Virus record (IMG/VR): IMGVR_UViG_3300036795_000143
Location: 15,279-79,278 of that record
Source of the DNA: a virus
Strand: one strand, 5' to 3'
DNA: 64,000 nt
Shown here piece by piece: positions 3,227 to 63,590 of the stretch. The position numbers and the translations under genes are program-made. Under the pieces are notes generated by a model. That model was not told the DNA's origin. It ran no database searches and worked only from the letters and a program-made list of their open reading frames with translations. Positions within the stretch are counted from its first letter, which is position 1. Every line of letters starts with the position of its first letter.

Positions 3227-4039
3227 CTAAGTGATGCCGTAGAGGACAAAATCAAACAACCTGGCTGGTGACGTAGCGATGCTGCATTGCGCACGAACAG
3301 CCAGCCGTGACCCACTCGGAATGCTGACCGGGAACACCGGTGAGTAGCCGGGAGCTAAAGTGTTACCCGTTGATTGGACCAAGCGATAGTTCGGGATTAG
3401 TACAACCTCGGATCCGGAGGCTCCCACCCCAACGTCGACCACCCAGCTCGCGACGGTCGCTGAGGTGTTTCCCTGATTACCGCAGCAGAGAAGCAAGCCC
3501 CGGGTGACTGCCGTCGTAGACGCGGTGAGCTGCGCCCAAGCGCCTTTCGTGTTGGCGGTCGCGCCGGGGTCGATAGGCGTTCCCCTGGAGTTCGTAGTCA
3601 CCGCGCCGTAAGCAGTAACCAATGATCTAGCTGCCGGTAAATCAAACGCGCCGCCAATGATGTACGCGGTGCAGGTGCCCGCAACGGACGCCGAGCTAGC
3701 CTGAATACGAACGGATAACCGAGACGCCGCTGGAATGCTTATCGGAACGTAGATCGCCACAGGGAGATTCGTCACCGACGCTGGCGGGACGGCGTGCAAA
3801 TTAGGTACCAGCACGACTTCGGAACCCGACGCGCCGATACCAACATCCATCAGGCTGGGCACCGATGCCGGATTGTAGATAACCAACAACGCGCTCGCGG
3901 TGAAGGATGTGGATGCGATCAACTGAGCCCAGGCGCCTTTAACGTTAACCGTTGCCGAGGAGGTAACCGCCGTCCCGCTAGACCCGCTCACACCTGCGTC
4001 AACAACCCGGCAACTACCTTCGGGAGGCCAATCAGCCAT
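3227..4039 (-). CDS. Minor tail protein with an internally duplicated domain
   Basis: Start MADWPPEG overlaps the upstream stop (TAATG). Two copies of KGAWAQLxAST...DVG(I/V)GASGSEVVL(V/I)PN...P(I/V)SIPxxSRLxVRxQ. Confidence 0.7.
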   Translation of the reverse strand: MADWPPEGSCRVVDAGVSGSSGTAVTSSATVNVKGAWAQLIASTSFTASALLVIYNPASVPSLMDVGIGASGSEVVLVPNLHAVPPASVTNLPVAIYVPISIPAASRLSVRIQASSASVAGTCTAYIIGGAFDLPAARSLVTAYGAVTTNSRGTPIDPGATANTKGAWAQLTASTTAVTRGLLLCCGNQGNTSATVASWVVDVGVGASGSEVVLIPNYRLVQSTGNTLAPGYSPVFPVSIPSGSRLAVRAQCSIATSPARLFDFVLYGIT

Positions 4040-4713
4040 TACATGGTGGTGGCGTCGAGGATCAGCGCACCAGCAGCGACGGTGATCTGACCTTGGGAGG
4101 CGAATACTTCCGGCACAACGCGTTGCCAAAAGAACCCACCGGAAGCCAAAACGGTTAAGGTGATCGCTGCGCCACCGGAAGTCGCGGACAGCTGGAATGT
4201 GTTCGTGGCACTACCGACAATGAAGTAAATAGTGCCCTCGGTGATACCAGTCGACAGAGTCGTATTGAACTCGTTGTAAAGGATGACGCGGTCACCGTTG
4301 GACAGGCCGTGGGCGACGGAGAAGAAGTCCGCGTTGGCTAGGGTCGTGTCGACCGAGGCGAAACCCTTGAGTGGAGTGGTCCCACCGAAAGGAATGTAGC
4401 CAAGATACTGGGTGCCGCTGTTACCGGTGAGAGCGTTCCACAAACCGAAATACGCGTAGGTGCCAGCGGCGACATCGAACGTGAAAGTGCTTGTATTGGT
4501 TTTCTGGCCAGAGGCAGCGGCGCTCCAAACAGCAGCTTTCCGAGCGTAGGCCGGTGAACCACCGGTCGCCTCGGTACCACCAGCGGTCAGGGTAGTGCCG
4601 GGGTCACCGCTGGACTGGTGGATACCGACGAACCCGATCCCACTGGACGGCGCGGCGGGGGTCTCATCGAGAGCATCCAGTGCTTGGTTCCATGCTGTGG
4701 CGTTAAAGGGCAT
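4039..4713 (-). CDS. Minor tail protein
   Basis: EATGGSPAYARKA..W...FDV.AGT..YFGLW motif of the kind seen in actinophage tail proteins, plus an AHGLSNGDRV insert. Confidence 0.7.
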   Translation of the reverse strand: MPFNATAWNQALDALDETPAAPSSGIGFVGIHQSSGDPGTTLTAGGTEATGGSPAYARKAAVWSAAASGQKTNTSTFTFDVAAGTYAYFGLWNALTGNSGTQYLGYIPFGGTTPLKGFASVDTTLANADFFSVAHGLSNGDRVILYNEFNTTLSTGITEGTIYFIVGSATNTFQLSATSGGAAITLTVLASGGFFWQRVVPEVFASQGQITVAAGALILDATTM

Positions 4714-4721
4714 TAGTGCTC

Positions 4722-6263
4722 CTAAATGAGATTCACGGTCGCTATGGTGTTATTAGTAAGTTCGGTGTCCGCGAGGTCGCTATGGGTGAGGACCACTGAA
4801 AGGGCCCTCGGTGGCCACGGCCGGGCGGGTGGGAAGAACTTGACTTCGGTCCCGGTGCCAGTAATGGCCAGCGCGACCAGCGCGCTAGTAGCGACGGTTT
4901 TACGTGCAGTGCCGGCGTTCGACAGTCCGAGGGTGCACACCGCGCTGGTTATCGCGACCTTGCGGACGGGACCAGCGAGGCCGACCAAACCGAAATAGCT
5001 AGTGGATTTGTTTTCCTGACCAGCGTGCGTGGCGGATAAGCCGATAGCGCACAAACCGGCGACAACAGCGGCTTTGCGGTCGACTGCGGTAGCGGCAGCG
5101 CCGAACGCGGCGGCGCCACGCTGCGGTGCGGTCTTGCGTTCCGTCGCGGTGGTGGCCAACCCGAGTGCGGCGGCACCAGCAGTGGCCGCAAGCTTTCGGT
5201 CGATGGCCGAGCTGGTGAGACCGAGGGCCGCGCGGCCGGTTTCCGCAGTGGTTTTCGCTGCGGTGCCCGAGCTGGCCAACCCGAGCGCGGCGCGGCCGGT
5301 GATCGGGGCTGTCTTGTGCGGTGTCCCGGTGCCCGCCAGGCCCAGCGAGCTGGCGCCGGCCTGCGCGGCGGTGCGGTGCTCAACACTGGTCGACGTCGCA
5401 CCCAGGGCGCCCGTACCGGCTTGCACCGCTCGTTTGGTGTCGACAGCACTGGTCGCGAGCCCCACCGCGCCACGACCAACTTGCGGGGCGGCTTTGCGGT
5501 CGATACCGGTACCGGCGAGGCCGAGTGCGCAACTGCCGCCGGTGGGAGCAACTTTCGCCCCGATGCCGGTCGCCGCTAAACCGATCGGGGTTTGACCGCT
5601 TTCGGCGACCGCTGTCTGCGGAAGGATTTCCAGCGCTGCGCTAACGGACGTCGTTGAGGACCCGAACGTGCCACCGAATGTGGTAGCACCGGGAGTGCCC
5701 GTCGCTGACGTCGATTTCCAGCTGACCGCATAAGCGTTGTTCGTGGTATCAGTGAACGCCGGGGTGATCAGCGTTGTGGCCGCGTTCGGGGTGAGCGCAC
5801 TGCTGTTGTTCCAGTTATCCGCGATGCCGTAAACAACCGAGCCGGTTTGGGTGGTTGTTACCGAAAATGTGCCAACAGTCGATGACGACCCGGTGTTACG
5901 GCTCCCGCTGCCCGCGCCGGATTGCGAGGTCGCCGCACCGGTGAGGACCCGGACCGCAATGTATTCGTCACCAGCGTTATTGGTGAACGCGGCGGTGACC
6001 GTGATAGAACCGGGTGCGGTGGTCAACTGGCACAGGTAAATACCGACCGTGCCGTGACCAACAACCGGTGTGATCCCAGCGGTCCAGGTATGGCTACCGG
6101 AGTCGGAGACGCTGATGGTTTCGTTGCTGCCCGAACTGAAACCACCGGAGACGATAGCGACCAGCAGTGAGTTAGCCGGCGGGCTAAATGAGGCTGTAAC
6201 GACCGAGCCGACAGCAGTCTTAGAGACTACTGCCGGTGTGGAACCGTCCTCTGTGATAGCCAT
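4722..6263 (-). CDS. Tail fibre/adhesin-like protein: S/T-rich N-terminal domain plus 20-aa repeats
   Basis: C-terminal half has the same repeat as 952..2871. Confidence 0.65.
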   Translation of the reverse strand: MAITEDGSTPAVVSKTAVGSVVTASFSPPANSLLVAIVSGGFSSGSNETISVSDSGSHTWTAGITPVVGHGTVGIYLCQLTTAPGSITVTAAFTNNAGDEYIAVRVLTGAATSQSGAGSGSRNTGSSSTVGTFSVTTTQTGSVVYGIADNWNNSSALTPNAATTLITPAFTDTTNNAYAVSWKSTSATGTPGATTFGGTFGSSTTSVSAALEILPQTAVAESGQTPIGLAATGIGAKVAPTGGSCALGLAGTGIDRKAAPQVGRGAVGLATSAVDTKRAVQAGTGALGATSTSVEHRTAAQAGASSLGLAGTGTPHKTAPITGRAALGLASSGTAAKTTAETGRAALGLTSSAIDRKLAATAGAAALGLATTATERKTAPQRGAAAFGAAATAVDRKAAVVAGLCAIGLSATHAGQENKSTSYFGLVGLAGPVRKVAITSAVCTLGLSNAGTARKTVATSALVALAITGTGTEVKFFPPARPWPPRALSVVLTHSDLADTELTNNTIATVNLI

Positions 6264-21824: not shown

Positions 21825-22028
21825 TTACTCCTCATCGGGGCGATAAACGACCACCTGGGCGAGCTGGTCTAAGACGATCACAACGACACCAGGTAATAGC
21901 TCCGCGAATCGCTCTCGGACGCGTTGCGCTTCAGCGATGTTGAGGTGGCCGGTGAAACCCAGGATCAGCGTGTCGCCGGGCCGGACCGGACCAGTCCACG
22001 CCTGCACAACAACGTTCTTGTCGTTCAC
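21825..22028 (-). CDS. Hypothetical protein
   Basis: Overlaps the terL stop. Confidence 0.55.
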   Translation of the reverse strand: MNDKNVVVQAWTGPVRPGDTLILGFTGHLNIAEAQRVRERFAELLPGVVVIVLDQLAQVVVYRPDEE

Positions 22029-23497
22029 CTAATCGAATCCAGCACGTTGTAGTCTTCTCCTCCGTAAACCGCGAGGCCGTGCAACGCGAGCGTCCCGGCC
22101 ATCATCGGTGAAATATCAAGCTCGGACATGCGCCGACCGAAAGCCCACGCACCATCCCCGACGTCCCTTTTTTTCGCTGCCCGGACCGCTTCGTCGAGGT
22201 TGATTTGCCCGACGTGCCGTAACCCGTCACGGTCCGGTGCTTGCGCTGCTTTCAACATCGACCCGCACGCCTGGCACAATTCCCGCGCTTGAATTAATTT
22301 CAGTTTCGGTTCGAAACCGGCCTCGATGAGGTCGGTGAGTAGCGCACCAGCGGGACCTGACGCGTCGATGATCCACGCGATCGGTCCCCACTGCGCTTCC
22401 AACTCGATGATGCGGGGAAGCATCCAATCGACGCCGGGCCGGTGGTCGAGGACGTCATCACGGCTGGTGATTTCGATGTGGGGGATTCGGTCTTCGCGGT
22501 AGCCGGCGACGGCAATGGCACCCGATTCCAAACCGGGGCTGACGTCGAGGGCGAACACCATCGGCGAGCCTTGGATTTGGGAGTTCGGGTCGAGTAGGTG
22601 TCCCCAGGTGGTGGGGTCAATCAGTGGCGCGCCACGGGGGTCATCCCAGATCCCCAATACTTCTCTGGCGTATTCGACTTCATCCATGGAGCGTTGCGCC
22701 AGGATCAGGGTGTCCCGGGAGATGCGGATACCCAACGCGGGCATCGCCTGGGCGAGCACGTGAGGATCGGTGGCGGCGACGTCGGGGTTGGCCCGGTAGT
22801 GCTCCTCATCCGCTGACCACTCGTAATAGGCCAGTCCGGGGTCACGTTCCATACCGCGTTGCCGGACCCGACGTAACGCGTGGGAACCGGGCTTGCCGGC
22901 AGAGCTGAGGTACCACAACTGCCAATTCGGTCTAGCGAAAAGGATCGGCATCAGGGCGCCCACGTGGTCCGTGGCCAACGCAAACGCTTCATCGAAAAAC
23001 ACCATGTCACCGGACCAGCCACGGGCGCTGGAACCAGTCCGGGCCACGAAGTCAATACGGGCCCGTGACTTCAGCTCGATCGACTGTTCCTCGTTGCTGA
23101 TCCGGACTTGTTTCACTTCTCGGTCAAGGTCAGGGTGGGATTCGATGAGCATTTGGATCCGCTCGCGCATTTTCCTGCTCGTGGCCATGAGGTGCGCGGT
23201 GTAAACGGTTTGCAAACCGAAAAGGTAAATGCCGGACAGCGCGGCGACTTCAGCGATGACGCTTTTCCCGCATTGTCTGGGTACAACCAAGCCCACTTCG
23301 GGTGCGGACCATCGCCCGCTGGCGCGTTGCCCGAGGGCACCGCTCAGGACCCGGCATTGCCAAGGGTCCAGCGGCATGCCGACCATGGCGGCCAGCTCGA
23401 TCGCGGCGTCACCCTTGCTGATTGACCACGGCGGGACCGATTCGATCCGTGGGACTTGGGATCCGAGAACTTCCGGTTCGGCGCGCTCTGAGGTCAT
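22025..23497 (-). CDS. terL: Terminase large subunit
   Basis: LDPWQ, Walker A VPRQCGKS, Walker B FFDEA, coupling motif YLSSAG, nuclease ALDVSP...DISP. Confidence 0.95.
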   Translation of the reverse strand: MTSERAEPEVLGSQVPRIESVPPWSISKGDAAIELAAMVGMPLDPWQCRVLSGALGQRASGRWSAPEVGLVVPRQCGKSVIAEVAALSGIYLFGLQTVYTAHLMATSRKMRERIQMLIESHPDLDREVKQVRISNEEQSIELKSRARIDFVARTGSSARGWSGDMVFFDEAFALATDHVGALMPILFARPNWQLWYLSSAGKPGSHALRRVRQRGMERDPGLAYYEWSADEEHYRANPDVAATDPHVLAQAMPALGIRISRDTLILAQRSMDEVEYAREVLGIWDDPRGAPLIDPTTWGHLLDPNSQIQGSPMVFALDVSPGLESGAIAVAGYREDRIPHIEITSRDDVLDHRPGVDWMLPRIIELEAQWGPIAWIIDASGPAGALLTDLIEAGFEPKLKLIQARELCQACGSMLKAAQAPDRDGLRHVGQINLDEAVRAAKKRDVGDGAWAFGRRMSELDISPMMAGTLALHGLAVYGGEDYNVLDSIR

Positions 23498-31499: not shown

Positions 31500-31900
31500 C
31501 GCTTTTTTTCTCAGAGAGGGAAATGCACCGGCGAGAAGCTCGCCGATGTTTTTTTTGTGCTAAAAATCACGAATGTCTTTTGTGTCCGTTGTGACTGTGT
31601 GTGTTGATCAAATGACTGTGTGTGTTGTTGCTGTGTGTGTTGTTGATGTTACTTTGGGTTGGTAATTTAGCGTGACTGATCCACTACTGACAATTACCAC
31701 CATTTGGCCTAATCATTTGCGTGAGTGTGTGTGGCTGTGTGTGATTGTTGATGTTCGTTTGCTGTGGCTGTGTGTGTGCGTGTGATTACTGTGTGTTGGT
31801 AATTGTCTGTGACTATTCCATTACTGCATGTGTTGTTACTGTGCGTGTGGTGGGCAATTAGATCATCTTATGTTCACTCGTATGCGAGCGTATTGCCAGG
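31500..31900. other. Non-coding TG-rich low-complexity tract at a strand-skew switch; candidate packaging/genome-end region
   Basis: Repeated ctgtgtgtg units, inverted repeat GACAATTACCA (31689) / TGGTAATTGTC (31797), hairpin GGCGAG-AAG-CTCGCC plus T-run, no ORF. Confidence 0.5.
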
Positions 31901-34116: not shown

Positions 34117-34137
34117 TCGAATAACTTTGTGCGACTA

Positions 34138-34168
34138 GCCGTCACCGTTTGTTGGTGGCGGTTTTTTG
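34138..34168 (+). terminator. Rho-independent terminator
   Basis: GCCGTCACC-gtttgtt-GGTGGCGGT followed by a T-run. Confidence 0.75.
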
Positions 34169-34246
34169 TTGTGTCCGTTTCACCCCTTATGGCTAGGCCA
34201 AACGGGTCGATCTGTGACATCTACCTGGATAAACAGCTAGAACGGC

Positions 34247-34274
34247 TTGCATCCGTGACATCTGCGAGTAGTGT
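34247..34274 (+). promoter_or_regulatory. Putative housekeeping-sigma promoter with flanking GTGACATCT direct repeats
   Basis: TTGCAT-16 nt-TAGTGT; GTGACATCT at about 34214 and 34255. Confidence 0.45.
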
Positions 34275-34284
34275 TTGTCTTGCA

Positions 34285-34850
34285 GGCGAAAAACAAAAAA
34301 ACAATCGGAGAACCTGATCTTGACGGTGAGGGATCTTCTGATTCTGATCTTACTCAACTACATAAGCCACCTAGGCGGTACGAAGCCTAGGGACGTCCAG
34401 GCAGCTAACCCGCGAGGGAACCACCTAGGACGCCGCCCTGATGATCGCAACTGGGCAAAACCGATTCTTCCGGATCGGGTGTCTCGAACTTGACCCCGTT
34501 CTAGGTGGCCCTGGCAGTAGATCATTTACTGAGGTGCGGGGTTACGGAGGTGATCCGTTTGTCGGACCCTTCCCAGCTAATGGAGGCGACCGCGTGAGCG
34601 GCCTAATTGCCCTCTATGCCACCAGACACCCTATCCGGGTATTTCCTTAGGTAAACCGAGTGCGGTAAGCCGCGCCGTGGCTGCGATGTTTGGATGATCT
34701 TACCCACATTGCCCCGGTGCGCGGCCTCGGTTCACCACATCGCAGATGTTGCCAGACCGACTAGGTCCGCTGGTGAGCCGTAATGGCGCCGCAGGTGGCA
34801 ATCCCGGGCTATGCCCGTGCGAGCGGTTCGATTCCGTCGTTTGCGGCCAC
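34285..34850 (+). ncRNA. Candidate large structured non-coding RNA of about 570 nt
   Basis: No credible CDS. 14/15-bp long-range helix 34470-34484 with 34624-34638; 9-bp helices 34366/34501, 34491/34536 and 34681/34737; GNRA-capped hairpins; T-loop-like 3' end. Confidence 0.6.
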
Positions 34851-34881
34851 TCGAAACAAACAAATCCAGGAGGTTCGACCC

Positions 34882-35138: not shown

Positions 35139-35324
35139 GTGTGCGAGATCAAACGGAATGCCGCTGTCACCGGTACGTATTGCCTAGCGTGCGACATTGT
35201 GCACGTGGCATATGGCGCGACGTTAGCGGAATGGTCGGCAGTGTGTAGGGACGCGGAACGCATTAAGCGCGTCGCGGTACTCGATCTAGTTCTCGCTGCC
35301 GCTGCCGCTGCGTTAACGCGCTAG
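35139..35324 (+). CDS. Hypothetical protein
   Basis: SD AGGAG; stop TAG is the start of hairpin repeat 1. Confidence 0.55.
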   Translation: MCEIKRNAAVTGTYCLACDIVHVAYGATLAEWSAVCRDAERIKRVAVLDLVLAAAAAALTR

Positions 35325-35409
35325 CGCGTTTCCTGACTGTCCAGCTCGCACGGCTGGACAGTTTGGGATGCCCGCTAGGGCAGAGTCACGAATCTGAGGA
35401 TGGCGCGTC

Positions 35410-35613
35410 ATGCGTTCGACTATCACTCTCGAATCCCCTACTACTGTCACCCTGACTCATTCGGCCAGCTGTGCGGCTGCGCTTATCGCGTCCGATGCGC
35501 TGCGGTTGGCATTGCGGACCGAAACGAACCACACGGTTATACGGCAGATGAATACCACGCTGGCCGCCGTGTCCGCTCTGCGCAACGTGACCCATAAGCA
35601 CTGCCAGCACTAG
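35410..35613 (+). CDS. Hypothetical protein
   Basis: SD GAGG after repeat 1; the alternative frame 35400..35597 cannot be excluded. Confidence 0.4.
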   Translation: MRSTITLESPTTVTLTHSASCAAALIASDALRLALRTETNHTVIRQMNTTLAAVSALRNVTHKHCQH

Positions 35614-35793
35614 CCCACGTTTCGCCCACCGCAACGCGCCGCACGATTAAGGGTTAACCATGTTCACAGTGTTTCGGATCTTTGTTTACGCGGTGAGGAC
35701 GTACCCGGAAGTGCGCGCGCTGGTACTCGTTATCGGTTCGTGCCTTCTGGTTTGCTGCCTTATCTCCTGGTATCGCATGGTGGTGCCACTCCG

Positions 35794-36045
35794 ATGATTG
35801 ATACCGCAATCGATCGTGAGGCCAGTCCGGCGCAGAATACCCGCTGGCTTCGACGGATGACTACTGCCCCGGCTATCAAGGGTCACAAGCTACAGCGCGG
35901 AACCGCTACCGCGTGGTGTGAGTGTGGATATTACTGCGGCACGACTACGTCACACGTAGTGCAGCACGGTGGCGCAGATCATATCGAGCCACCTGACGAC
36001 GTTAATACGCGCCACGATTTGCACCGCGTCATTATCGGCCGCTAG
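35794..36045 (+). CDS. Cys/His-containing hypothetical protein
   Basis: ATGA-coupled to a 45-aa membrane ORF (35660..35797); stop TAG begins repeat 2. Confidence 0.55.
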   Translation: MIDTAIDREASPAQNTRWLRRMTTAPAIKGHKLQRGTATAWCECGYYCGTTTSHVVQHGGADHIEPPDDVNTRHDLHRVIIGR

Positions 36046-36137
36046 CGCGTTTCCTGGCCGTCCAGTCGCTGGACGGTTTGGGATGCCCGCTAGGGCATCA
36101 ATCGCCCACCGCATTACCGAATATAGGAGAATTTGTC

Positions 36138-37190
36138 ATGTCGAAGCAGACTATCGAATGGTTGAACACAAACGTGCTGGTCGGAATGACCGACGCACGC
36201 GGCAACGCGTGGCACTACCGGCAGAGCGCACAAGGTACGGAGTCGAATCACTACGCGGGTGCTATTCCGATCGAAGACGTCCGGCGTCGGTTGTTCTCCT
36301 GGGATGCGGTACCAGCGCGCGTGGCCGTCGAGGTCGCCGCGACAATGGAGAATGCAACCCACCTATCCGATGACGGGGTGCCGCTGCGGTGGGCAGTCCA
36401 GGAGGATCGCAAGGCAATCACCGCGTCCGACGACGGCACCGTGTTTGAAATGTTCAAATCCGGCTACACATCGCACCAATACAGCGAATGGCTACTGTCG
36501 AACGTGGGAACCATCCTCGATGGTGATCTCGGCATTAGTTCGGCTGGATTGCTCAGCAATCGTGGCGTGGCGTGGGTCGAGGTGGGAGTGCCGGAAACGA
36601 TTAAGGGTCCGGCCGGTGTCGATTTCCGCCCCAATTTGGTGGCGTGCACGTCGCACGATGGCACGCTATCGACGACGTACAAACGAACCGTTACCGCGAC
36701 AGTGTGCGATAACACGCTAGCCGCTGCCCTAGGTGAGAAAGGGCAGACGGTGAAAGTCAAGCATTCGAAGTATTCCGGGCTGCGGATCACCGATGCGCGG
36801 GTAGCGCTGGCCATGGTCACCGAAACAGCGGACGCGTTCGCCGATCAGGTCCGACGTTTGACTGATTGGAAAGTCGGACCGTTACAGCTGAAGACGGTCA
36901 TTAACGCGTTGGTGCCCGTGCCTGATGAGACGGGTAGGGCTAAGACAATCGCAGAGAAGAAGCAAGGCGAGATTCTGGCGCTTCTGGCTAATGATCTGCG
37001 TGTCCAGCCGTGGGCTGGTACCGCGTTCGGTGTTGTCCAGGCGTTCAACACTTGGACCCATCACATTAAGGGCACCCGTGGCAACGATGGCGGAGGCCGG
37101 GCAGAGCGAAACATGCTTTCCGCTCTGGACGGCAGCACCGATAAGTCAGACGCCATGGTCCTTAGCGTGCTGGCCGCCACGAACGTCTAG
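36138..37190 (+). CDS. DUF932-family phage/plasmid protein
   Basis: NAWHY, SAGLL..G..AW, TSHDGT, TVCDNTL, KH(S/T), GTAFG..QAFNT..HH. Confidence 0.85.
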   Translation: MSKQTIEWLNTNVLVGMTDARGNAWHYRQSAQGTESNHYAGAIPIEDVRRRLFSWDAVPARVAVEVAATMENATHLSDDGVPLRWAVQEDRKAITASDDGTVFEMFKSGYTSHQYSEWLLSNVGTILDGDLGISSAGLLSNRGVAWVEVGVPETIKGPAGVDFRPNLVACTSHDGTLSTTYKRTVTATVCDNTLAAALGEKGQTVKVKHSKYSGLRITDARVALAMVTETADAFADQVRRLTDWKVGPLQLKTVINALVPVPDETGRAKTIAEKKQGEILALLANDLRVQPWAGTAFGVVQAFNTWTHHIKGTRGNDGGGRAERNMLSALDGSTDKSDAMVLSVLAATNV

Positions 37191-37296
37191 GCCGTGTCGC
37201 ATCACCTAGCGCGTTTCCTGCCGTCCAGCTCACCGCTGGGCGGCTGGGATGCCCGCTAGGGCACAGACCACCAAATCCAGCGGGAAGGACAGAATC

Positions 37297-37812
37297 ATGC
37301 CAGAAACCACCGTTAACGTAGACACCGAGATCACCCGTGACGATATCCGCGCCATGCGTATGGCCGATTCCGTCCACTTCCATACTTATCAAGGGCGTTC
37401 GTGGATCGTTGCCGAACTGCGGAATTACGGCCTAGGCCGTATCTACACTGCGACCGAGCAACGGTTATTCTCCGAGGTCCGTAAGTACGGCGCCGATCGT
37501 TGCCGTGAGATCGCGGTAGCTACTCAACGGCTAGAGGACTACTCCGGCCGTACTGGCGAGTATCAAGCGTTTGCCTCATTCTGCCCTAAGGAAGTGTGGC
37601 TGACTATCGTGGCAGCATTACGGCCGGGCGATATTCTCGGTTTCCATTGGGTCAGGTCGAACAATTCCGAGAGTATGCGGACGATTGGTTACCATCACGA
37701 TCAGCTACGGCTGATTGCCAGCACTCCAGAGCACAAGAATAACCGTCACTGGATTGTCCAAGACCAGTTTGGTCCGGATAATTCCGCGCGGATGGTGCTA
37801 CGGAATGTTTAG
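37297..37812 (+). CDS. Hypothetical protein
   Basis: SD GAAGGA; C-terminal GPDNSARMV. Confidence 0.7.
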   Translation: MPETTVNVDTEITRDDIRAMRMADSVHFHTYQGRSWIVAELRNYGLGRIYTATEQRLFSEVRKYGADRCREIAVATQRLEDYSGRTGEYQAFASFCPKEVWLTIVAALRPGDILGFHWVRSNNSESMRTIGYHHDQLRLIASTPEHKNNRHWIVQDQFGPDNSARMVLRNV

Positions 37813-37899
37813 CTCGCCTGGATATGTTCCGCGCTGCTCACTTCGGGGGTGAGCGGTCGCGGTGGATAGTCCAGTCTCCAGCCGAAAGGATCCACTGCA

Positions 37900-38511
37900 A
37901 TGAGTAGCGACGTTGTCGAAGTCGACATGAACACCCTCACCATTCCGCGTGTGACCGTGCTTACCGGTCACACTTCCCCCGATACCGCGTACCTAGTAGA
38001 AGATTACCCCTATGGGCGCCGTTTGCGTTGCAAGATCCGCTATTGGATTGAGACAGCGGCTAAGGGCACGGCGAGGGGTCAACAGCGTTTCATGGCGCAG
38101 ACCACTAACCCTAGGTCGCCTGAGCCGCACGACGTGTGGAATAGGCCGAAGGCCAGCACGTATTCGCAGATTATGGTTATGTACTTGGACGATATCGACC
38201 ACGTGCATGCCTGGCACATTCCGTTGTGGATTGAGGGTACGTTCGACGCTCGCACTCGCGCGATGGGTATTTATGCCGGTTTGTCAAGTTACCAGCGGCA
38301 GCTATATGACGATATGCTCGCATTCTCTCACAAGCATAACTCGATTAGGTGGGAGGATTACCACGATCGGGTGTCGACGCTAGCCGAATGGATCGCCACT
38401 ATTGGAATGGCGCCGACGCTGCGGAACAACGTCTGGTCAAACGGCAATCGCCAGTTCTACCTCAGCGATCCCGCTGCGTACGTAACCGCAGCACGCGCGG
38501 CAATCGCCTAA
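37900..38511 (+). CDS. Hypothetical phage protein
   Basis: HTSPDTAYLVEDYPYG..LRCKIRYWIET...QTTNP...WN.PKASTY. Confidence 0.75.
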   Translation: MSSDVVEVDMNTLTIPRVTVLTGHTSPDTAYLVEDYPYGRRLRCKIRYWIETAAKGTARGQQRFMAQTTNPRSPEPHDVWNRPKASTYSQIMVMYLDDIDHVHAWHIPLWIEGTFDARTRAMGIYAGLSSYQRQLYDDMLAFSHKHNSIRWEDYHDRVSTLAEWIATIGMAPTLRNNVWSNGNRQFYLSDPAAYVTAARAAIA

Positions 38512-38578
38512 GGCGAATGGTGCGGGATGCCCGCTAGGGCAACATCCGGAAATTCCGACGTGATGGAAGTGAGTAGCC

Positions 38579-38917
38579 GTGGACGGTTATTTGATGATCA
38601 CTTTGGTGGTCAAAGCAGGCGATGATCCTGCCCGTGCGAGGTCGAACGCAATCGGACGGCTTAACGAGTGGGTGACTGATCGGACGCTAGGCGGTTTCAA
38701 TGGTGAGCCAAATCGTCCGGGTGCGCTTCTGCATTACTCAGTGCACGATGACACGGAAACGGCAGACGTCGCGGCGCAAGCGGCTGTAGTGGTTTCCGAT
38801 GGTATGCACGCGGCAGCGTGTAAAGCGTTCGATGACACGCTCGCATGGCTAGGGCCACAGTGTGACCGGTCCGCACTCCGTGCGGCTGTTAAGGCAGCTC
38901 TCAATTACAGCGCCTAG
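38579..38917 (+). CDS. Hypothetical protein
   Basis: Stop TAG begins repeat 5. Confidence 0.6.
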   Translation: MDGYLMITLVVKAGDDPARARSNAIGRLNEWVTDRTLGGFNGEPNRPGALLHYSVHDDTETADVAAQAAVVVSDGMHAAACKAFDDTLAWLGPQCDRSALRAAVKAALNYSA

Positions 38918-39001
38918 CGCGTTTCCTGCCGTCCAGCTGCCACGGCTGGATAGCGGGATGCCCGCTAGGGCAATCTATCTAGCCCTAAGGATGGCCACAT
39001 C

Positions 39002-39844
39002 ATGAGCGATTACAGCGCCGAAACGAGCGCACCAATCAGGAATAAAGCGGGTACGTTCCGTGTCCGTGTCGAATACGATCAGGATGGTACTGGTAACCCG
39101 CGTGACAATGATTGCAACACGGGCACCATGGTCCTATCTCACCGTGGCTATAACTTGCCGAGTGAAGGGGACGTCTCGTTCATCGATCAAATCGATAGGG
39201 CTATGGAGCGTGGCGGGCCGCTCCTAGCGGCACGGTATTTGCGGTATTTGACTTTGACCACAGCGGCTAACGCGGTAGTCCTCACCGTCTACGGGTACGA
39301 CCACGGGCAACTGAGGCTTAAGGCAGGCGAGCGTACAGGCAGCTTTGCCGATAAGTGGGATTCTGGTATCGCGGGTGTGATCTACGCGCTACGCGACGAT
39401 ATCGCTAAGGCTCACGAGGGCTATCCGATGCCTAGCGATGACGATATCGCCACCTGGCTTAAGAGTGAGGTCCAGGAGTACGACACGTGGGCTAACGGTG
39501 AAATGACCGGCTTTATCGTCGAGGTGCAGTGCGGTAAGTGCCAGGCATGGCGACACGTCGATTCATGTTGGGGCTTCTATAGCGTGAGCGACGCAATGGA
39601 GCAAGGCACCGACCAAATACCGGCTGATCTTAATGGTGTCGAACGCTGCGAGTGTGAGTGGAAGCTGCCGCACCCGTTGAGCGATGCGGCTAGGGCAGTC
39701 ATCGCGGCAATGTTTGGGGACGTTAATAGGTCCGGCGTTTCCGCACCGGATGCCGTATGGACCGAGATTCAGCAGGCTTTCCCGTTCGAGCTATTCGAGA
39801 ATAGGCCGGACGCAGTGACTTACGATCCAGAAGCGGGATGGTAA
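39002..39844 (+). CDS. Hypothetical phage/plasmid protein
   Basis: NPRD..N.GTM...HR.Y, YDHG, WDSG..G.IY, EV.EYD.W..GE..GF, DSCWGFY. Confidence 0.75.
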   Translation: MSDYSAETSAPIRNKAGTFRVRVEYDQDGTGNPRDNDCNTGTMVLSHRGYNLPSEGDVSFIDQIDRAMERGGPLLAARYLRYLTLTTAANAVVLTVYGYDHGQLRLKAGERTGSFADKWDSGIAGVIYALRDDIAKAHEGYPMPSDDDIATWLKSEVQEYDTWANGEMTGFIVEVQCGKCQAWRHVDSCWGFYSVSDAMEQGTDQIPADLNGVERCECEWKLPHPLSDAARAVIAAMFGDVNRSGVSAPDAVWTEIQQAFPFELFENRPDAVTYDPEAGW

Positions 39845-39848
39845 ACCA

Positions 39849-40250
39849 ATGATCACGATGGCGATAGACCTTAGTATGGGCGGTCCGGACGTCGATACCG
39901 TGCCGAGTGAGCTAGCTACGATCCTCCGTGAACTGGCTACGCGCGTGGAGCGTGGCGAGGCCAGCGGACCTATCCGCGACGTTAACCGGAAACGGATAGG
40001 AGCGTTTAGCGTTACCGCGCCGTTAGTGCCGTGCGTCTACTGCGGTAAGCCGGTCGACTATGACCCGCTTGATCCGACGGACGGAGACGTGACCGATAAG
40101 GATGGTTTACCGGATTGTTGGGATGCGCCTAGGCGCGAGTGCCAGGAATGCGGTAGCAATGGCGAGGATGACCCCGGATGCGGTGAGTGTAGCGATACCG
40201 GAAACTCATGGATGGGTCTTCACGCGGTAAGAGCACAAGATGAGTCGTAA
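39849..40250 (+). CDS. Hypothetical protein with C-terminal Cys motifs
   Basis: ELATILRELA......G.IRDVN...IG; stop TAA begins repeat 6. Confidence 0.65.
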   Translation: MITMAIDLSMGGPDVDTVPSELATILRELATRVERGEASGPIRDVNRKRIGAFSVTAPLVPCVYCGKPVDYDPLDPTDGDVTDKDGLPDCWDAPRRECQECGSNGEDDPGCGECSDTGNSWMGLHAVRAQDES

Positions 40251-40359
40251 GTGCGTTGTCCAGGCGCCCGACCACCCGACTAGGGGGGGCCGGGCGTTTG
40301 GCCTGCCCGCTTAGGGCAACTACCGCAGCACCGAACCCTAGCTAGGAAGGCTGGACACA

Positions 40360-40614
40360 ATGACCGGAAACGATGGCAATACCGAACGGGTGGAAGCTGC
40401 GCACGTCGCGCTTAGGGCGTTCGCTGGACACTGCGGGCCGGATGAATACGGCACCAATCTAGGCGACCCTGATGAGTTTCTCACCATTGCGGGTGACCTG
40501 ATCGCTAACCTCTTGCACGCTGCGGACGCGGTAGACGTTGACGCGGACACATTGCTAGGCCGCGCAATCTTGCACTACTCAGCGGAAAGCACCACGCCGT
40601 ACGACTTGCCCTAA
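40360..40614 (+). CDS. Hypothetical protein
   Basis: SD AGGAAGG; DLIANLLH.AD...A..HY.AE. Confidence 0.65.
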   Translation: MTGNDGNTERVEAAHVALRAFAGHCGPDEYGTNLGDPDEFLTIAGDLIANLLHAADAVDVDADTLLGRAILHYSAESTTPYDLP

Positions 40615-40804
40615 CCGCACCACCCGAACCACGGGAAATCTCGCGAGCGTTGATATGGACCAATTGCTAAGCCGCGCCATCCTTCACTATTCAGCGGAAA
40701 GCAACGACGTTCCCTAGGCGTTTCCTGACTGTCCAGCCGTGAGCTGGACAGTGCGGGATGCCCGCTAGGGCAGCGACTACCAACAGCCCTAGGGAGGGCA
40801 CACC

Positions 40805-41305
40805 ATGGCAAGGCAGGCCACGCGCCGTAGGCGCCGTGATAAGGGTGCGACCGCTGATGATATCCAGGTGGGCGACCTGATCGAACCGAACAACAACGGG
40901 TACCGCGCCACGGTTTATTGGCGTGGCACGTCAAAGAATTGCACCGAGCCTCACGTAGTGCTGCGTTGGACGTATCCGGATGATTTCAGCGTGAACGCGG
41001 CGCACCGGGGGCAGTCCAGCGGCCGAATTTGTCGGCCGGGTGATCCGGTCACGCGTTGGCTGGCACCAAACGAAACAACTAGCAAGGACGGCACGGTGAG
41101 CGGTCCGGCGGCTACCCGTGAGCAGGTACGTGAGCTGGCCGGGGCTATCGCGGCGCAGGCGCAGGCCATCGCGGACGGGACGCACACGGCCTCCGTGTTC
41201 GCCGCTGTCTGCCGCGTGTGGTCCAACGCTGAACTGTTGAAAGCTTGGACGCGTGACGATAGGCAGGATGGGCCTGCCGATCGGCGCGGCTTGCATGCGG
41301 TATAG
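40805..41305 (+). CDS. Hypothetical protein (possibly two fused small domains)
   Basis: SD GGGAGG after repeat 7. Confidence 0.55.
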   Translation: MARQATRRRRRDKGATADDIQVGDLIEPNNNGYRATVYWRGTSKNCTEPHVVLRWTYPDDFSVNAAHRGQSSGRICRPGDPVTRWLAPNETTSKDGTVSGPAATREQVRELAGAIAAQAQAIADGTHTASVFAAVCRVWSNAELLKAWTRDDRQDGPADRRGLHAV

Positions 41306-41699: not shown

Positions 41700-42056
41700 G
41701 TGCAAAAAGGATTCGATCTTGTTCGCGTCGGTGATCAAATCGGTTTGCCGGCAGAGCCGATGATCGGCACCGTACTAGTCGTTCGCGGTGGTCCGCACAA
41801 CGGGACCGCTGTGCGCCGCTGGGACGAACAGGGCTGGACTGTCGAGGACGGCACTGGGCGGCTGGTGTGGTTCGAAGTGTTCCGGCTGGCGTTGACCGCG
41901 CCGGACGTGGTGCTGGAGGTCACGCGAGTGCGGAAGCAGTGCGGGTGGCCGCTGTGCAGGAAGGGTGGCTGGCTGCCGGTTGACCCACCACCGGATCAGG
42001 TTTACTGCTCGGACGCGTGCAGGCAGGCCGCGTCTAGGGACCACCGGAAAAGCTAA
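41700..42056 (+). CDS. Protein with C-terminal CGNR-like zinc finger
   Basis: CGWPLC...YCSDACRQAASR; start position uncertain. Confidence 0.55.
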   Translation: MQKGFDLVRVGDQIGLPAEPMIGTVLVVRGGPHNGTAVRRWDEQGWTVEDGTGRLVWFEVFRLALTAPDVVLEVTRVRKQCGWPLCRKGGWLPVDPPPDQVYCSDACRQAASRDHRKS

Positions 42057-42180
42057 AGCATGCTTATTTGTTCTGGCAACAAAGCATGCTTATTTGTTTA
42101 GGCAGAAAAGCATGCTTGTGAGCCAGACCAAAGCATGCTTTTATTGTTTGCCCACCGCACAGGAAAGACTGGAGTCTGAT

Positions 42181-42678: not shown

Positions 42679-42751
42679 TGCGGCGTAGCTCAGTGCAGAG
42701 CGCCGGTCAGCGGACCGGAGGACGCAGGTTCAACTCCTGCCGCCGCAGCCA
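42679..42751 (+). ncRNA. tRNA-like RNA with aberrant 6-nt anticodon loop and encoded CCA
   Basis: TGCGGCG/CGCCGCA acceptor; GCTC-AGTGCA-GAGC D arm (no GG); CCGGT-CAGCGG-ACCGG; GCAGG-TTCAACT-CCTGC; G-CCA. Confidence 0.8.
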
Positions 42752-56768: not shown

Positions 56769-57410
56769 TCATTTCGCAGCGTCCTCTCGCTGCTCATCGG
56801 TGAATGCAGCTGATTGACCGGACGCGGCGGCGACGACATAGGAGTTCATTGAGCCGACCGCTGAGCGGGTGCCGTGATCAGTCGCTGCGTAGGTCATTGT
56901 GTTACCGGCTTGGATTCCCATTCGGGCTCCGACCTCAATGGCGTCCTGGTTAGCGCCGAGGTAAACAACGTTCCAACCGTACTCACGTTCCTGGTGTTCG
57001 ACCATTGCTTTGATGGTGAGCCAGGTGAATTCTCTGGACGAGTTTTCCAGGCCATCGGTCATAATGGCGAGGATCACAACGCCGGGACGTTCGTCTTCGG
57101 GTAGCGCCAAGAGTTCGAGCCCGAACTCTTCGATGGATCTGCCCATAGCGTCGAGTAGTGGTGTGCCACCGCAGGGGTCCAACTCGAAAGGCTCAATCAG
57201 GGAGGGGTCAGTGGAGGGGCACACCGTTTCGTACCGGGTGCGCGAGCGGTGGTAGTCGAACTGGGCGATGCGGATGGTGCGTTTGCCGGGGCTCTGTGTC
57301 TGGTCGTGGATGAATTCGTTGATCGCGTCTTCAGCGGACGTGCGAATAGAATCCATTGACCCGCTGCGGTCGACGACGAGCATCACCGCGCAGTAATCAG
57401 AGTTGGTCAC
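56769..57410 (-). CDS. VWA-domain protein
   Basis: MIDAS DRSGSM, GGTPLLDA, IMTDGLENSS, YLGANQDA. Confidence 0.9.
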   Translation of the reverse strand: MTNSDYCAVMLVVDRSGSMDSIRTSAEDAINEFIHDQTQSPGKRTIRIAQFDYHRSRTRYETVCPSTDPSLIEPFELDPCGGTPLLDAMGRSIEEFGLELLALPEDERPGVVILAIMTDGLENSSREFTWLTIKAMVEHQEREYGWNVVYLGANQDAIEVGARMGIQAGNTMTYAATDHGTRSAVGSMNSYVVAAASGQSAAFTDEQREDAAK

Positions 57411-63023: not shown

Positions 63024-63314
63024 TTACCCGGCCAACGCTTTGACGACGCGAGGGCGGTCAGCACCGCCGCTTCGAGAAGTTTTCGCGGTTTTCGCGCGAA
63101 TCTCGCGGCGTCTGGCTGCTTCTACGCGCTGCCGGGCGAGGTAGTCATCGATCTCTTCGGGTTCGATCCAGGACTTCCCGCCGTGCCTGATCGCCGCGAG
63201 TCGGCCATCTACGATCATGCGGTAGATCGAGTTCTCTGAGAGCTTCAGAGCAATCGCAGCAGCTGGGACGGTCATCAGCCCTGCAAGCGGGTCGTATGTG
63301 GGGGCGTCGTTCAT
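63024..63314 (-). CDS. Excisionase/Cro-like HTH protein
   Basis: MTVPAAA..LKLS..SIYRMI..G.L.A...G...I....IDDYL. Confidence 0.8.
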   Translation of the reverse strand: MNDAPTYDPLAGLMTVPAAAIALKLSENSIYRMIVDGRLAAIRHGGKSWIEPEEIDDYLARQRVEAARRREIRAKTAKTSRSGGADRPRVVKALAG

Positions 63315-63590
63315 GACGCGGTGGTCCTCCCTCTGTCTAGGCGCTGCCAGGCACCGGTAGGCGAGGGGAACTGCACCCGGGGGGGTCCGCTGCGCGTGCG
63401 CTTGCGGGTGTTGGCGGTCACTCCCGGTGGACTTCTGTAACGCTCCGTGTCTGGCAGCGATGGAGAGATCGTCGCGGAACGGCGCGTCGTTCGTCAAGTT
63501 TTCTCGAAAACTGTGTTATACGCGAGATTTTCGCGCAGTCAGTGGTGGTGTGTGAGAATCTCTGACACCTAGCGAGAAGTGAGGGGTGCC

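Follow-up and report, generated by a model that had tools for sequence, protein, structure and literature searches.

The accessory-gene array of a 79-kb uncultured soil actinophage (93% complete; record of 79,278 bp) is punctuated by a hairpin of ~58 nt that belongs to a previously undescribed family and most likely acts on the mRNA, serving also as a joint for gene swapping. The same hairpin is present in at least 10 other phages or prophages of Kribbella- and Rhodococcus-type bacteria. In our preferred reading, which we hold at a probability of about one half, it is an RNase III-type element that processes, stabilises or insulates at the RNA level and, in addition, supplies homology for gene shuffling, as promoter-early stem-loops (PeSLs) do in T4-like phages. 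The window, meaning the whole 64,000-nt stretch of this phage that was analysed, contains six complete hairpins and a half copy, every one of them on the + strand between a stop codon and the following ribosome-binding site. A sequence-only reading had counted seven co-oriented copies; the orientation stood and the count did not, copy 4 being the half copy. These copies and the features around them are as follows.

34137-34172, + strand: canonical intrinsic terminator (11-bp stem and T-run) that closes the preceding unit
34247-34274, + strand: SigA-like promoter candidate (TTGCAT, 16 nt, TAGTGT), read from the sequence and not scored by the promoter scan; it heads a ~600-nt leader, with the array after it
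35321-35382, + strand: hairpin copy 1, with the TAG of the upstream ORF (35139-35324) in its base; next ATG at 35410
36042-36097, + strand: hairpin copy 2, its base holding the TAG of the ORF that ends at 36045, then the DUF932 gene 36138-37190; supported by covariance models R1 and R2 and by its fold
37206-37263, + strand: hairpin copy 3, upstream stop 18 nt before it, next ATG at 37297; supported by R1, R2 and fold
37818-37874, + strand: long bulged hairpin of ~24 bp and unrelated sequence, scoring just 14-15 bits with R1 and R2
38524-38541, + strand: half copy 4, consisting of the 3' arm and GGGCA tail only
38914-38972, + strand: hairpin copy 5, its base holding the TAG of ORF 38579-38917; next ATG at 39002; supported by R1, R2 and fold
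40247-40318, + strand: hairpin copy 6, a divergent subtype, its base holding the TAA of ORF 39849-40250
40648-40717, + strand: partial duplicate of the 3' end of gene 40360-40614, 82% identical, running into the TAG of copy 7
40714-40772, + strand: hairpin copy 7, preceded by that remnant of a paralogue's 3' end; next ATG at 40805; supported by R1 and R2 scores
57771-60103, - strand: homologous-recombination pair encoded by the phage itself, a RecT-family annealase with a YqaJ-like exonuclease

The 3' arm, GGGATGCCCGCTAGGGCA, has six exact matches (35365, 36080, 37246, 38524, 38955 and 40755) against a chance expectation of 0.08, all on the + strand, with no further occurrence in the full 79,278-bp record; four copies have an exact 5' arm, CTAGCGCGTTTCC. 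Covariance-model searches of other genomes, as the sequence-only reading had proposed, brought the family to at least 43 members in 10 viral, prophage or assembly records and the cultured Rhodococcus phage Braxoaddie, and the hairpin has no match in Rfam. Trained only on 28 copies from other records, model R2 recovered 6/6 full window copies at 40-67 bits, with nothing else exceeding 21 bits. Copy 1 scored 82.9 bits with R1 and 67.5 bits with the independent R2 (fold -42 kcal/mol, z -4.7), and the divergent copy 6 scored 60.9 and 40.3 bits. Fold energies of the hairpin RNAs are -37 to -44 kcal/mol, and in five copies z lies between -4.5 and -5.6. The locus of half copy 4 gave a weak match with both models (38461-38541, 15-16 bits), and a surrogate left arm may lie within the upstream gene at 38464-38474; a soil relative (run X2) carries a full hairpin at this position, its upper stem different yet paired.

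Family members share a 6-bp base (CUAGCG/CGCUAG), a fixed waist, an upper stem of 13-20 bp and an invariant GGGCA tail. The 43 copies have a median of 58 nt and 22 bp, with loops of 3-7 nt; 22 bp is about two helical turns, the substrate size that RNase III requires. At the waist, where a fixed asymmetric bulge had first been read, we found instead a 2-bp G-C/U.G clamp flanked by two 1x1 mismatches, C/C and U/U, both symmetric. The upper stem is free in sequence, with pairing always kept. Paired cells make up 97.7% of the window copies alone (n = 6) and 95% of a 40-copy alignment (A6), percentages somewhat inflated because covariance-model alignments are fitted to the structure, compared with 35-47% in slid controls of A6. 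Seven pairs change on both sides among the window copies, a result equalled by 0/500 shuffles, which bears out the claim of a varying inner stem that stays paired; the compensated extra pair noted in copy 6 (TAAGTG/CGCTTA) is real. Across A6, 19/22 pairs change on both sides, giving 173 double-change cells versus 47 in shuffles (0/500 equal it). Orthologous hairpins in three relatives (G004, G005 and G011) keep the base and have different upper stems that still pair.

The fold is also specific to one strand, as had been proposed from its G.T mismatches. The coding-strand fold is the better one in 39/43 copies, and family pairs include 120 G.U against 12 A/C mismatches. In the window, covariance-model scores run at 60-83 bits on the + strand and 13-31 bits on the - strand; G.U pairs are common, and in 6/6 full copies folding of the + strand is favoured by 2-8 kcal/mol. 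The family is read on the + (coding) strand, most likely as RNA. Placement is as strict: 43/43 copies have the upstream stop at -21 to +1 and the next start, preceded by a strong Shine-Dalgarno sequence (SD), at +14 to +55, and none lies on the non-coding strand or within a gene. Twenty-two copies use the TAG of CTAG as the stop, and half of the copies have their stop 3-21 nt ahead of the base. In the window, the upstream stop is the opening TAG or TAA of copies 1, 2, 5 and 6, and likewise for the gene remnant before copy 7, with the start 27-41 nt past the hairpin, both much as first described. No U-tract is present at the hairpins, whereas canonical terminators occur elsewhere in the same phage, and the promoter scan placed no SigA-like promoter on any copy.

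In aggregate, a strand-specific, covarying fold of ~22 bp, always intercistronic, co-oriented with the genes and devoid of U-tract or promoter, best supports the mRNA-processing or stabilising role that the sequence-only reading had offered as one of two options. Small accessory genes from ~34.3 to 42 kb would be carried on one long transcript, whose intergenic RNA would fold into the ~22-bp helix with sequence-fixed base and waist and free-sequence upper stem. A double-strand-specific or structure-specific factor, for which host RNase III is the prime candidate, would recognise the helix, leading to cleavage or marking of the message at cistron junctions. Upstream of this point the message would retain a protective 3' hairpin; the downstream part would start a few nucleotides ahead of a strong ribosome-binding site, and its invariant UGCCC-GCUA-GGGCA may fold as a 5' cap. 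The outcome would be expression of each gene independent of its neighbours. As cited in PMC7509114, mRNA is stabilised by a strong SD near the 5' end and by 5' stem-loops (Hue 1995, Emory 1992), and in SP82 by a purine-rich ribosome-binding site downstream of an RNase III site (Hue 1995).

The RNase III signals of T7 (R0.3, R0.5, R1, R1.1 and R1.3) and SP82/SPO1 are likewise repeated hairpins of ~60 nt between cistrons of a polycistronic early or accessory message, set straight after the upstream gene and shortly ahead of the next SD. They too form a helix of about two turns with a conserved internal distortion, and the waist mismatches recall the internal loop of T7 R1.1-type sites. Unlike those sites, the present hairpins, at which cleavage is putative, are nearly nucleotide-fixed in base, waist and tail across very different phages and free at the top, carry their paired 1x1 pyrimidine mismatches and clamp rather than an asymmetric internal loop, and share no sequence similarity with them. 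RNase III sites have, to our knowledge, no requirement for a fixed base, waist or tail, and a base sequence this specific counts against the RNase III-type reading. The base and GGGCA tail are near-invariant across phages that share almost no genes and have hosts of different actinobacterial orders, which points to a sequence-specific reader. Also against it, most gene junctions must function without the element, since one relative (G001) has a single copy.

Genes between the hairpins are ORFans almost throughout and differ among relatives. Close relatives from soil runs X2-X4 show gene replacements or deletions whose edges, 38910 and 40250, are hairpin starts (in X3 the gene upstream of copy 6 is replaced, with its edge at 40250), and in the syntenic relative G001 the DUF932 gene is the only one shared in the array block. 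The hairpin travels with the downstream gene and not the upstream one. Arms of copies within one genome are nearly identical, and because ~25 nt of identical sequence frames every gene, the hairpins amount to portable homology. By analogy with PeSLs (PMC2839356), the gene differences are most simply put down to homologous recombination between repeats; gain, loss and exchange of genes at the hairpins would then need only ordinary recombination, and the phage's RecT/YqaJ pair could act on the repeats. With no Rfam match, covariation supported and gene content between repeats varying, none of the observations that the sequence-only reading had named as telling against it was made.

PeSL cassettes of T4-type phages run from a stop codon through a stem-loop and a sigma-70 promoter to an SD (Arbiol et al. 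2010, PMC2839356; Comeau et al. 2014, PMC4122927). Our hairpins resemble them as a repeated composite motif leading from the upstream stop via a stem-loop to the SD and start of the next gene, and as elements concentrated in plastic, ORFan-rich regions where insertions, deletions and replacements with repeats at their borders distinguish close relatives, with homologous recombination between repeats the proposed cause in both. PeSLs have a sigma-70 consensus promoter and act as terminators, whereas here no promoter or U-tract is detectable, the helix is much longer with a bulged and sequence-specific base, and the hosts are Actinomycetota. The ESAS/SAS elements of cluster K mycobacteriophages (Pope et al. 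2011, PMC3203893; Adephagia, PMC11373665) are also co-oriented, actinophage-specific inverted repeats with a variable spacer, upstream of non-structural gene starts with unusually long intergenic gaps, subcluster-specific and of putative function (PMC12699233). However, ESAS has imperfect arms of 15-17 bp and an unpaired spacer of 4-14 nt, where the variable middle of our hairpin is a covarying helix, and it is coupled to a 13-bp SAS at the ribosome-binding site and has SigA-like -35/-10 hexamers, none of which is present here.

ESAS has been reinterpreted in Adephagia as an inverted repeat with a SigA-like promoter (PMC11373665), and a promoter accompanies the stem-loop in both of the closest analogues described so far (for PeSL, PMC2839356). 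By analogy this counts against RNA processing and favours a regulatory cassette of the same kind, in which the hairpin would terminate or attenuate transcription of the upstream gene in a factor-dependent or U-tract-independent way, and the invariant 3' arm and tail would coincide or overlap with a promoter or operator serving the downstream gene and read, perhaps, by a non-SigA sigma factor or a phage factor. The 3' strand and tail are indeed more invariant than the 5' strand, and the invariant 18-mer is exactly what half copy 4 retains, as would also be consistent with that segment acting at the DNA level or binding a protein. TAGGGC resembles the Streptomyces-type -10 hexamer TAGRRT save for its last base, but the conserved final T is missing, the spacing to any -35-like hexamer varies (13 to 15 nt) and the sole candidate -35 falls in the free-sequence stem. 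With the promoter scan empty at every copy, a hairpin-to-start distance of merely 17-25 nt in relative G006, and the U-tract that the phage's real terminators have and mycobacterial RNA polymerase reportedly requires missing, we consider such a cassette unlikely.

The invariant waist and tail (C67 in 40/40 copies; GG..CA in 39-40/40) would suit a sequence-specific RNA-binding factor that does not cut, through nut/boxB-type antiterminator loading, translational regulation or a two-state switch, to which we give only a small chance. In a switch, a ribosome terminating at the base stop codon would melt the base and clamp, and the 3' strand would refold into the UGCCC-GCUA-GGGCA hairpin. The fixed basal module of ~10 nt is roughly the stretch that a ribosome at a stop codon unwinds, judging from footprint geometry, but the stop lies upstream of the base in the half of copies noted above. 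The small hairpin can form in 96.5% of cells, is the minimum-free-energy choice for excised copies 6 and 7, and is altered compatibly on both sides in two single copies (L147:6949 and L149:8416); its covariation is nevertheless uninformative (1 double change, reached by 108/500 shuffles). No protein family is common to all hairpin-bearing genomes, and we know of no precedent for six to fifteen nut-like sites per operon.

A recombination or transposition site acting at the DNA level, at which the folded single-stranded + strand would be recognised as in attC/IntI, IS200/IS605 or REP/RAYT and an enzyme would move hairpin-plus-gene cassettes, is improbable. The element does resemble attC: both are imperfect hairpins of 55-70 nt in which the base is conserved, certain positions always stay unpaired and the top varies but remains paired. 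Both also occur once for each gene of a co-oriented array of small, unrelated genes (ORFans here), often with the stop codon inside the site. Single-stranded DNA is also compatible with G.T pairs and strand bias, and hairpin presence varies at orthologous junctions (G006 genes 15029 and 15524 have one; their homologues 32236 and 32487 in this phage, G000, do not). However, the RYYYAAC/GTTRRRY boxes are absent, as first read, as are IntI and attI; mismatches are symmetric, not extrahelical bases; the coding strand gives the favoured fold; the element is tied to the downstream gene, where attC belongs to the upstream one; and each gene has its own strong SD directly behind the site. There is no integrase near the array, and searches found no tyrosine integrase, serine recombinase or Y1 transposase in this phage and no tyrosine integrase in G006, while those integrases found in G007, G008 and G010 lie >35 kb from the arrays. 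In host chromosomes the element was not found outside prophages and is not repeated, and the strict stop-codon-to-SD placement is what an expression signal predicts. Of the new recombination site once proposed, the specific mechanism is unsupported, and the cassette prediction holds: the genes found between the same repeats differ from relative to relative, and several edges of rearrangements fall at the edge of a hairpin.

A selfish MITE-like miniature palindrome, targeting CTAG and spreading among co-infecting phages without a role in expression, would account for CTAG at the element's start and near its end, the very unequal copy number among relatives (1 to 15) and the near-identical arms within a genome, but is far-fetched, since the conserved GGGCA tail past the second CTAG means that CTAG is not a target-site duplication, genes and the non-coding strand hold no copies, no transposase was found, and orthologous copies persist across 30-40% protein divergence with base unchanged and stems compensated, which argues for purifying selection.

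Two smaller observations concern the array itself. Its only other long gap, 37812-37900, is filled by the unrelated hairpin at 37818-37874. Copy 6 and its downstream gene 40360-40614 form one module that is common to record G009, and in relative X4 an additional gene starts after 40630.

The repeat of this gene array consists of six full hairpins and one half copy, c4, where the sequence-only reading had counted seven copies; the six stand and the seventh is reduced to a half.

Hairpins of the window and the transcription signals called around them
31529-31545: second called terminator in the window
34137-34172: canonical terminator with a T-run, closing the stretch before the array
34247-34274: SigA-like promoter candidate, with a leader of ~600 nt downstream
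35321-35382, +: full hairpin c1
36042-36097, +: full hairpin c2
37206-37263, +: full hairpin c3
38524-38541, +: half copy c4
38914-38972, +: full hairpin c5
40247-40318, +: full hairpin c6
40714-40772, +: full hairpin c7

The 18-nt 3' arm has six perfect occurrences, all on the + strand, against a chance expectation of 0.08, and no further occurrence in the entire 79,278-bp record. A covariance model built from the six full copies returned only those six when run over the window; they score 61-83 bits on the + strand, and the complement gives 13-31 bits. Each copy folds into a 6-bp base, a C/C mismatch, a clamp of one G-C and one U.G pair, a U/U mismatch, 14-17 more pairs and a loop of 3-5 nt, the full copies reaching folding energies of -37 to -44 kcal/mol. 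Two boundary features of the first description held: the opening bases of c1, c2, c5 and c6 are the TAG/TAA stop of the upstream ORF, as is also the case for a gene remnant ahead of c7, and the next Shine-Dalgarno sequence (SD) and start codon lie 27-41 nt 3' of the hairpins. Apart from these sites the array has just one long gap (37812-37900), which is occupied by a similar-sized hairpin of unrelated sequence. We rejected a supposed relic hairpin at 35611-35660, which aligns unconvincingly and does not fold. Immediately 5' of c7, segment 40648-40703 repeats 40536-40591, from the 3' end of gene 40360-40614, at 82% identity and is probably what a deletion left of a tandem paralogue; a close relative in soil run X4 has a second gene start beyond 40630.

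The virus is an actinophage. Its record, from a soil metagenome and estimated to be 93% complete, encodes a large terminase (22025-23497, -) with 35-41% identity to the terminases of Rhodococcus, Arthrobacter and Mycobacterium phages, alongside a portal protein, an HNH endonuclease, a RuvB-like ATPase, a DNA methylase and a RecT/YqaJ recombination pair. Virion genes occupy the - strand to ~23.5 kb, followed by a + strand block from ~28.8 to 43.5 kb and then a further - strand block. The hairpin array looks like one operon, and we infer co-transcription of its genes from the layout of a single promoter and terminator. These genes are small and mostly of no known function, the exceptions being a DUF932 gene and members of two PHROG families that are themselves of unknown function. 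Between the promoter candidate and the first array gene, the leader (34285-34880) holds no convincing ORF and gave no Rfam match at E values up to 1; near its 3' end (~34788-34849) lie a T-arm-like and an acceptor-like segment with CCA.

Relatives were not reached by the most direct routes. Exact scans with the 18-mer over IMG/VR and metagenome contigs gave chance matches in unrelated DNA only, a first two-arm pattern gave 36 IMG/VR matches that were all chance, a second exact two-arm pattern found none on genome contigs, BLAST of one window copy against GenBank phages returned no match, and the RuvB-like neighbour found no relatives as a query. The DUF932 gene led to a syntenic relative, G001, with one diverged hairpin in the same layout, and further members emerged only after patterns were relaxed to the family core. 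BLAST with a copy from G006 then matched five cultured Rhodococcus equi phages, including Braxoaddie, where one copy between genes 91 and 92 (record positions 63301-63360) scored 62.7 bits with the covariance model; the same model rejected the Gordonia phage matches of that search.

Hairpin copies in other records
G006: 13-15 copies inside 6.7 kb
G010: 7 copies
G009: 4 copies
G007: 3 copies
G004: 3 copies
G008, a complete provirus: 2 copies
G005, a 17.8-kb contig of the Kribbella albertanoniae JCM 30547 assembly: 2 copies
G011, a prophage-like region on a 1.42-Mb contig of Kribbella sp. NPDC056861: 2 copies

The hairpin is thus a family and not a private repeat of the window phage. A second covariance model, trained on 28 copies from other records with the window copies excluded, recovered the six window copies at 40-67 bits; since those copies were absent from its training set, this is an independent test of membership. 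The search that the sequence-only reading had proposed has in this way yielded a family of at least 43 copies in phages and prophages without an Rfam match: at gathering score Rfam reported only tRNAs, and at E values up to 1 only a chance match to a miRNA model. In host chromosomes, Kribbella genomes show nothing beyond 2 prophage copies each, and a scan of limited sensitivity over 150 other genomes of the order found no copy.

Across the family the consensus reads CUAGCG, one variable base, GU, U, a free stem of 13-20 bp with a 3-7-nt loop, U, GC, C, CGCUAG and GGGCA, and the median copy has 58 nt and 22 pairs. In our 40-copy alignment, the base CTAGCG...CGCTAG is present in 34-38 copies, and the waist between base and upper stem (mismatch, G-C/U.G clamp, U/U mismatch) is invariant in 34-40; it is widened to 2x2 loops in G001, and the Braxoaddie clamp has A-U instead of G-C. 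Most invariant of all are the 3' strand and the GGGCA tail, with C67 kept in all 40 copies and GG..CA in 39-40 of them. The alignments were fitted to the model, which raises the paired percentages somewhat: 95% of cells are paired, against 35-47% in slid controls. Changes on both sides affect 19 of 22 pairs and 173 cells, compared with 47 in shuffles, a level reached by 0 of 500 shuffles, and the base stem covaries too (CTGGTG/CACCAG, CTAGTA/TACTAG, CGTGC/GCACG). An alternative small hairpin is possible, but covariation is uninformative about it.

The structure belongs to one strand and one place. The coding strand gives the better fold in 39 of 43 copies, and G.U pairs number 120 versus 12 A/C mismatches, their mirror image; this bias and excess indicate that the structure forms in the single-stranded + strand. 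Both the retention of pairing through sequence change and the strand-specific, single-stranded fold had been read from the window copies and are borne out by the family. All 43 copies sit on the coding strand in the gap between two genes: the preceding stop falls at -21 to +1 and the following start at +14 to +55. In the Kribbella-type prophages G004 (L132), G005 (L133) and G011 (L150), the 40-50 nt beyond each hairpin contain another, small hairpin, CCCGG(C)...(G)CCGGG, ahead of a purine-rich SD, and in G006 the sequence GAGAGGAGAGA lies immediately 3' of the hairpin.

Gene content around the hairpins is highly variable. Synteny between G001 and the window phage extends through the - strand block at 45-90% protein identity, and their hairpin blocks share the DUF932 gene only; across ten records nearly every gene next to a hairpin is unique. 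Two G006 genes that lie between hairpins have homologues in the window phage that abut directly, TAG then ATG. The hairpin travels with the downstream gene, not the upstream one: c6 and gene 40360-40614 recur together as a module in G009, where the protein is 51% identical and the hairpin is of the same subtype, and in soil run X3 the gene before c6 is an unrelated one, the break falling exactly at 40250 with TGA replacing TAA. We made the soil-run comparison on short Logan contigs from three other soil runs, whose relatives are 85-98% identical to the window phage. In one such relative the site of half copy c4 has a complete hairpin, its upper stem new in sequence but paired, and another joins 37796 to 38910, four bases 5' of c5, with two genes missing. 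The proposal that the genes behave as cassettes fits in part: relatives carry different genes between the repeats, and the edges at 38910 and 40250 match hairpin starts, but, still on these short contigs only, the joints at 35613/35800 and 40630 lie away from hairpins.

An RNA-level intercistronic element fits these observations best: the helix is of a length suited to RNase III, and its fixed waist resembles the internal loop seen in T7 sites. RNase III sites of the T7 early region are likewise intercistronic hairpins of ~20 bp or more (here a median of 22 bp, and 43 of 43 copies between stop and start) with a conserved internal distortion between lower and upper stem. The window phage has no RNase III gene of its own, so any such activity would be the host's. 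The family tail beside a strong SD also recalls mRNA 5' stabilisers (PMC7509114). Base, waist and tail are kept across phages with almost no shared genes, whose hosts are Kribbella and Rhodococcus, and this near-invariance across unrelated phages of two actinobacterial orders argues for a sequence-specific reader. A dedicated factor that recognises base, waist and GGGCA, be it an RNA-binding or RNA-cleaving factor or a hairpin-specific DNA enzyme, is a speculative proposal to which we give rather low odds. On the RNA side, phages could have hijacked a conserved actinobacterial factor that binds or cleaves RNA. Searching for a phage-encoded partner, we found no protein family common to more than 5 of the 10 hairpin-bearing records. 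The most widely shared protein is one of 213 amino acids (56769-57410, -), encoded next to RecT and without a Pfam match, which occurs in the window phage, G001, G006, G009 and G010.

On the DNA side, a hairpin-specific enzyme could make hairpin plus gene a true mobile cassette without an integron integrase. Family arrays do resemble integron cassette arrays, with co-oriented, unrelated small ORFs and one site per ORF. We nevertheless rejected an integron: the attC boxes RYYYAAC...GTTRRRY are absent from the hairpin base, with no GTTRRRY present, and the IntI-type recombinase family PF00589 is missing from G006 and from the 93% complete window phage; for the window, the sequence-only reading had already found neither the boxes nor an integrase. 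G007, G008 and G010 do have PF00589, at a distance of >35 kb from their arrays. An attC site also belongs to the 3' end of the upstream gene, whereas the family hairpin is linked to the downstream gene, as c6 is to 40360-40614. Searches of the window phage for an integrase, resolvase or Y1 transposase (PF01797) found none.

Two phage repeat classes come close. Promoter-early stem-loops (PeSLs) of T4-type phages also lie between upstream stop and downstream SD, are enriched in plastic ORFan regions and show gene shuffling that parallels the family's (PMC2839356, PMC4122927), but they contain a sigma-70/SigA consensus promoter that the family lacks. A promoter scan placed no SigA/sigma-70 promoter on any copy; read from the sequence, TAGGGC lacks the final T and stands at a variable 13-15 nt from any -35-like hexamer, and we rejected a SigA promoter identity for want of a promoter-like site. 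Among actinophages the nearest parallel is the ESAS of cluster K mycobacteriophages, which has been reinterpreted as an inverted repeat together with a promoter and whose function is still unproven (PMC3203893, PMC11373665, PMC12699233). ESAS/SAS elements combine the 13-bp SAS GGGATAGGAGCCC at the ribosome-binding site with 17-bp inverted repeats around an unpaired 4-13-nt spacer, whereas the family has no SAS, other arm sequences and a covarying helix in the middle.

The hairpin is not an intrinsic terminator, because it has no U-tract: GGGCA runs into a purine-rich SD, and 0 copies were called as terminators. Host mimicry was rejected because Kribbella genomes show no enrichment of the 14-mer, and a REP/RAYT or IS200/IS605-type element because the window phage has no PF01797 and the limited-sensitivity scan of host genomes showed no copies outside the Kribbella prophages. 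Likewise discarded were a stop-codon read-through signal, since in half of the cases the stop comes before the hairpin; an N4-type hairpin promoter, since the phage has no RNA polymerase gene; a ribozyme, for which the fold is too simple and Rfam gives no match; and a CRISPR-repeat mimic, given the wrong size and the free-sequence stem.

These hairpins constitute a new family of actinophage cis elements, conserved in sequence and structure with unusually clean covariation, and missing from Rfam and the searched literature. The element marks where these phages keep and swap ORFan accessory genes, and its order of hairpin, strong SD and gene behaves like a natural standard connector. It bears on the poorly known processing of phage early messages in Actinomycetota and on the paths that mosaic gene exchange takes; the strong copy present in the cultured Rhodococcus phage Braxoaddie, and in its four close relatives Maselop, Polyyuki, GuyFagieri and CoffeeBean, opens its function to bench tests.

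Some further features were noted. Three gene gaps of G001 (L047 1694-1732, 6644-6682 and 9793-9831) contain T-arm-like segments (GGCTNCCGGATCGAATCCGGCCGG), not called as tRNAs by ARAGORN, that may be another type of intercistronic signal. The perfect 12-bp palindrome AAAGCATGCTTT recurs in the window at 42055-42155, with spacings of 26, 26 and 23 bp, and at further sites to ~47217; the cluster lies where the + and - strand blocks meet and looks like operator or origin-type sites. The equivalent place in G001 (L047:7694-8053) has 5 copies of another repeat, CTAGGCC.. GGCCTAAGATCAAC. At the left end of the viral record, outside the window, locus L009 encodes an HTH + DUF5753 regulator and a SnoaL-like protein (3550-4401 and 4688-5530). 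Such regulators and SnoaL-like proteins are typical of actinomycete chromosomes, and these genes may be host-derived or morons. At 42679-42751, ARAGORN called a tRNA with an undetermined anticodon ('gc', abnormal loop) that scores 55.9 bits with the Rfam tRNA model and may be a tRNA-like element instead of a working tRNA.
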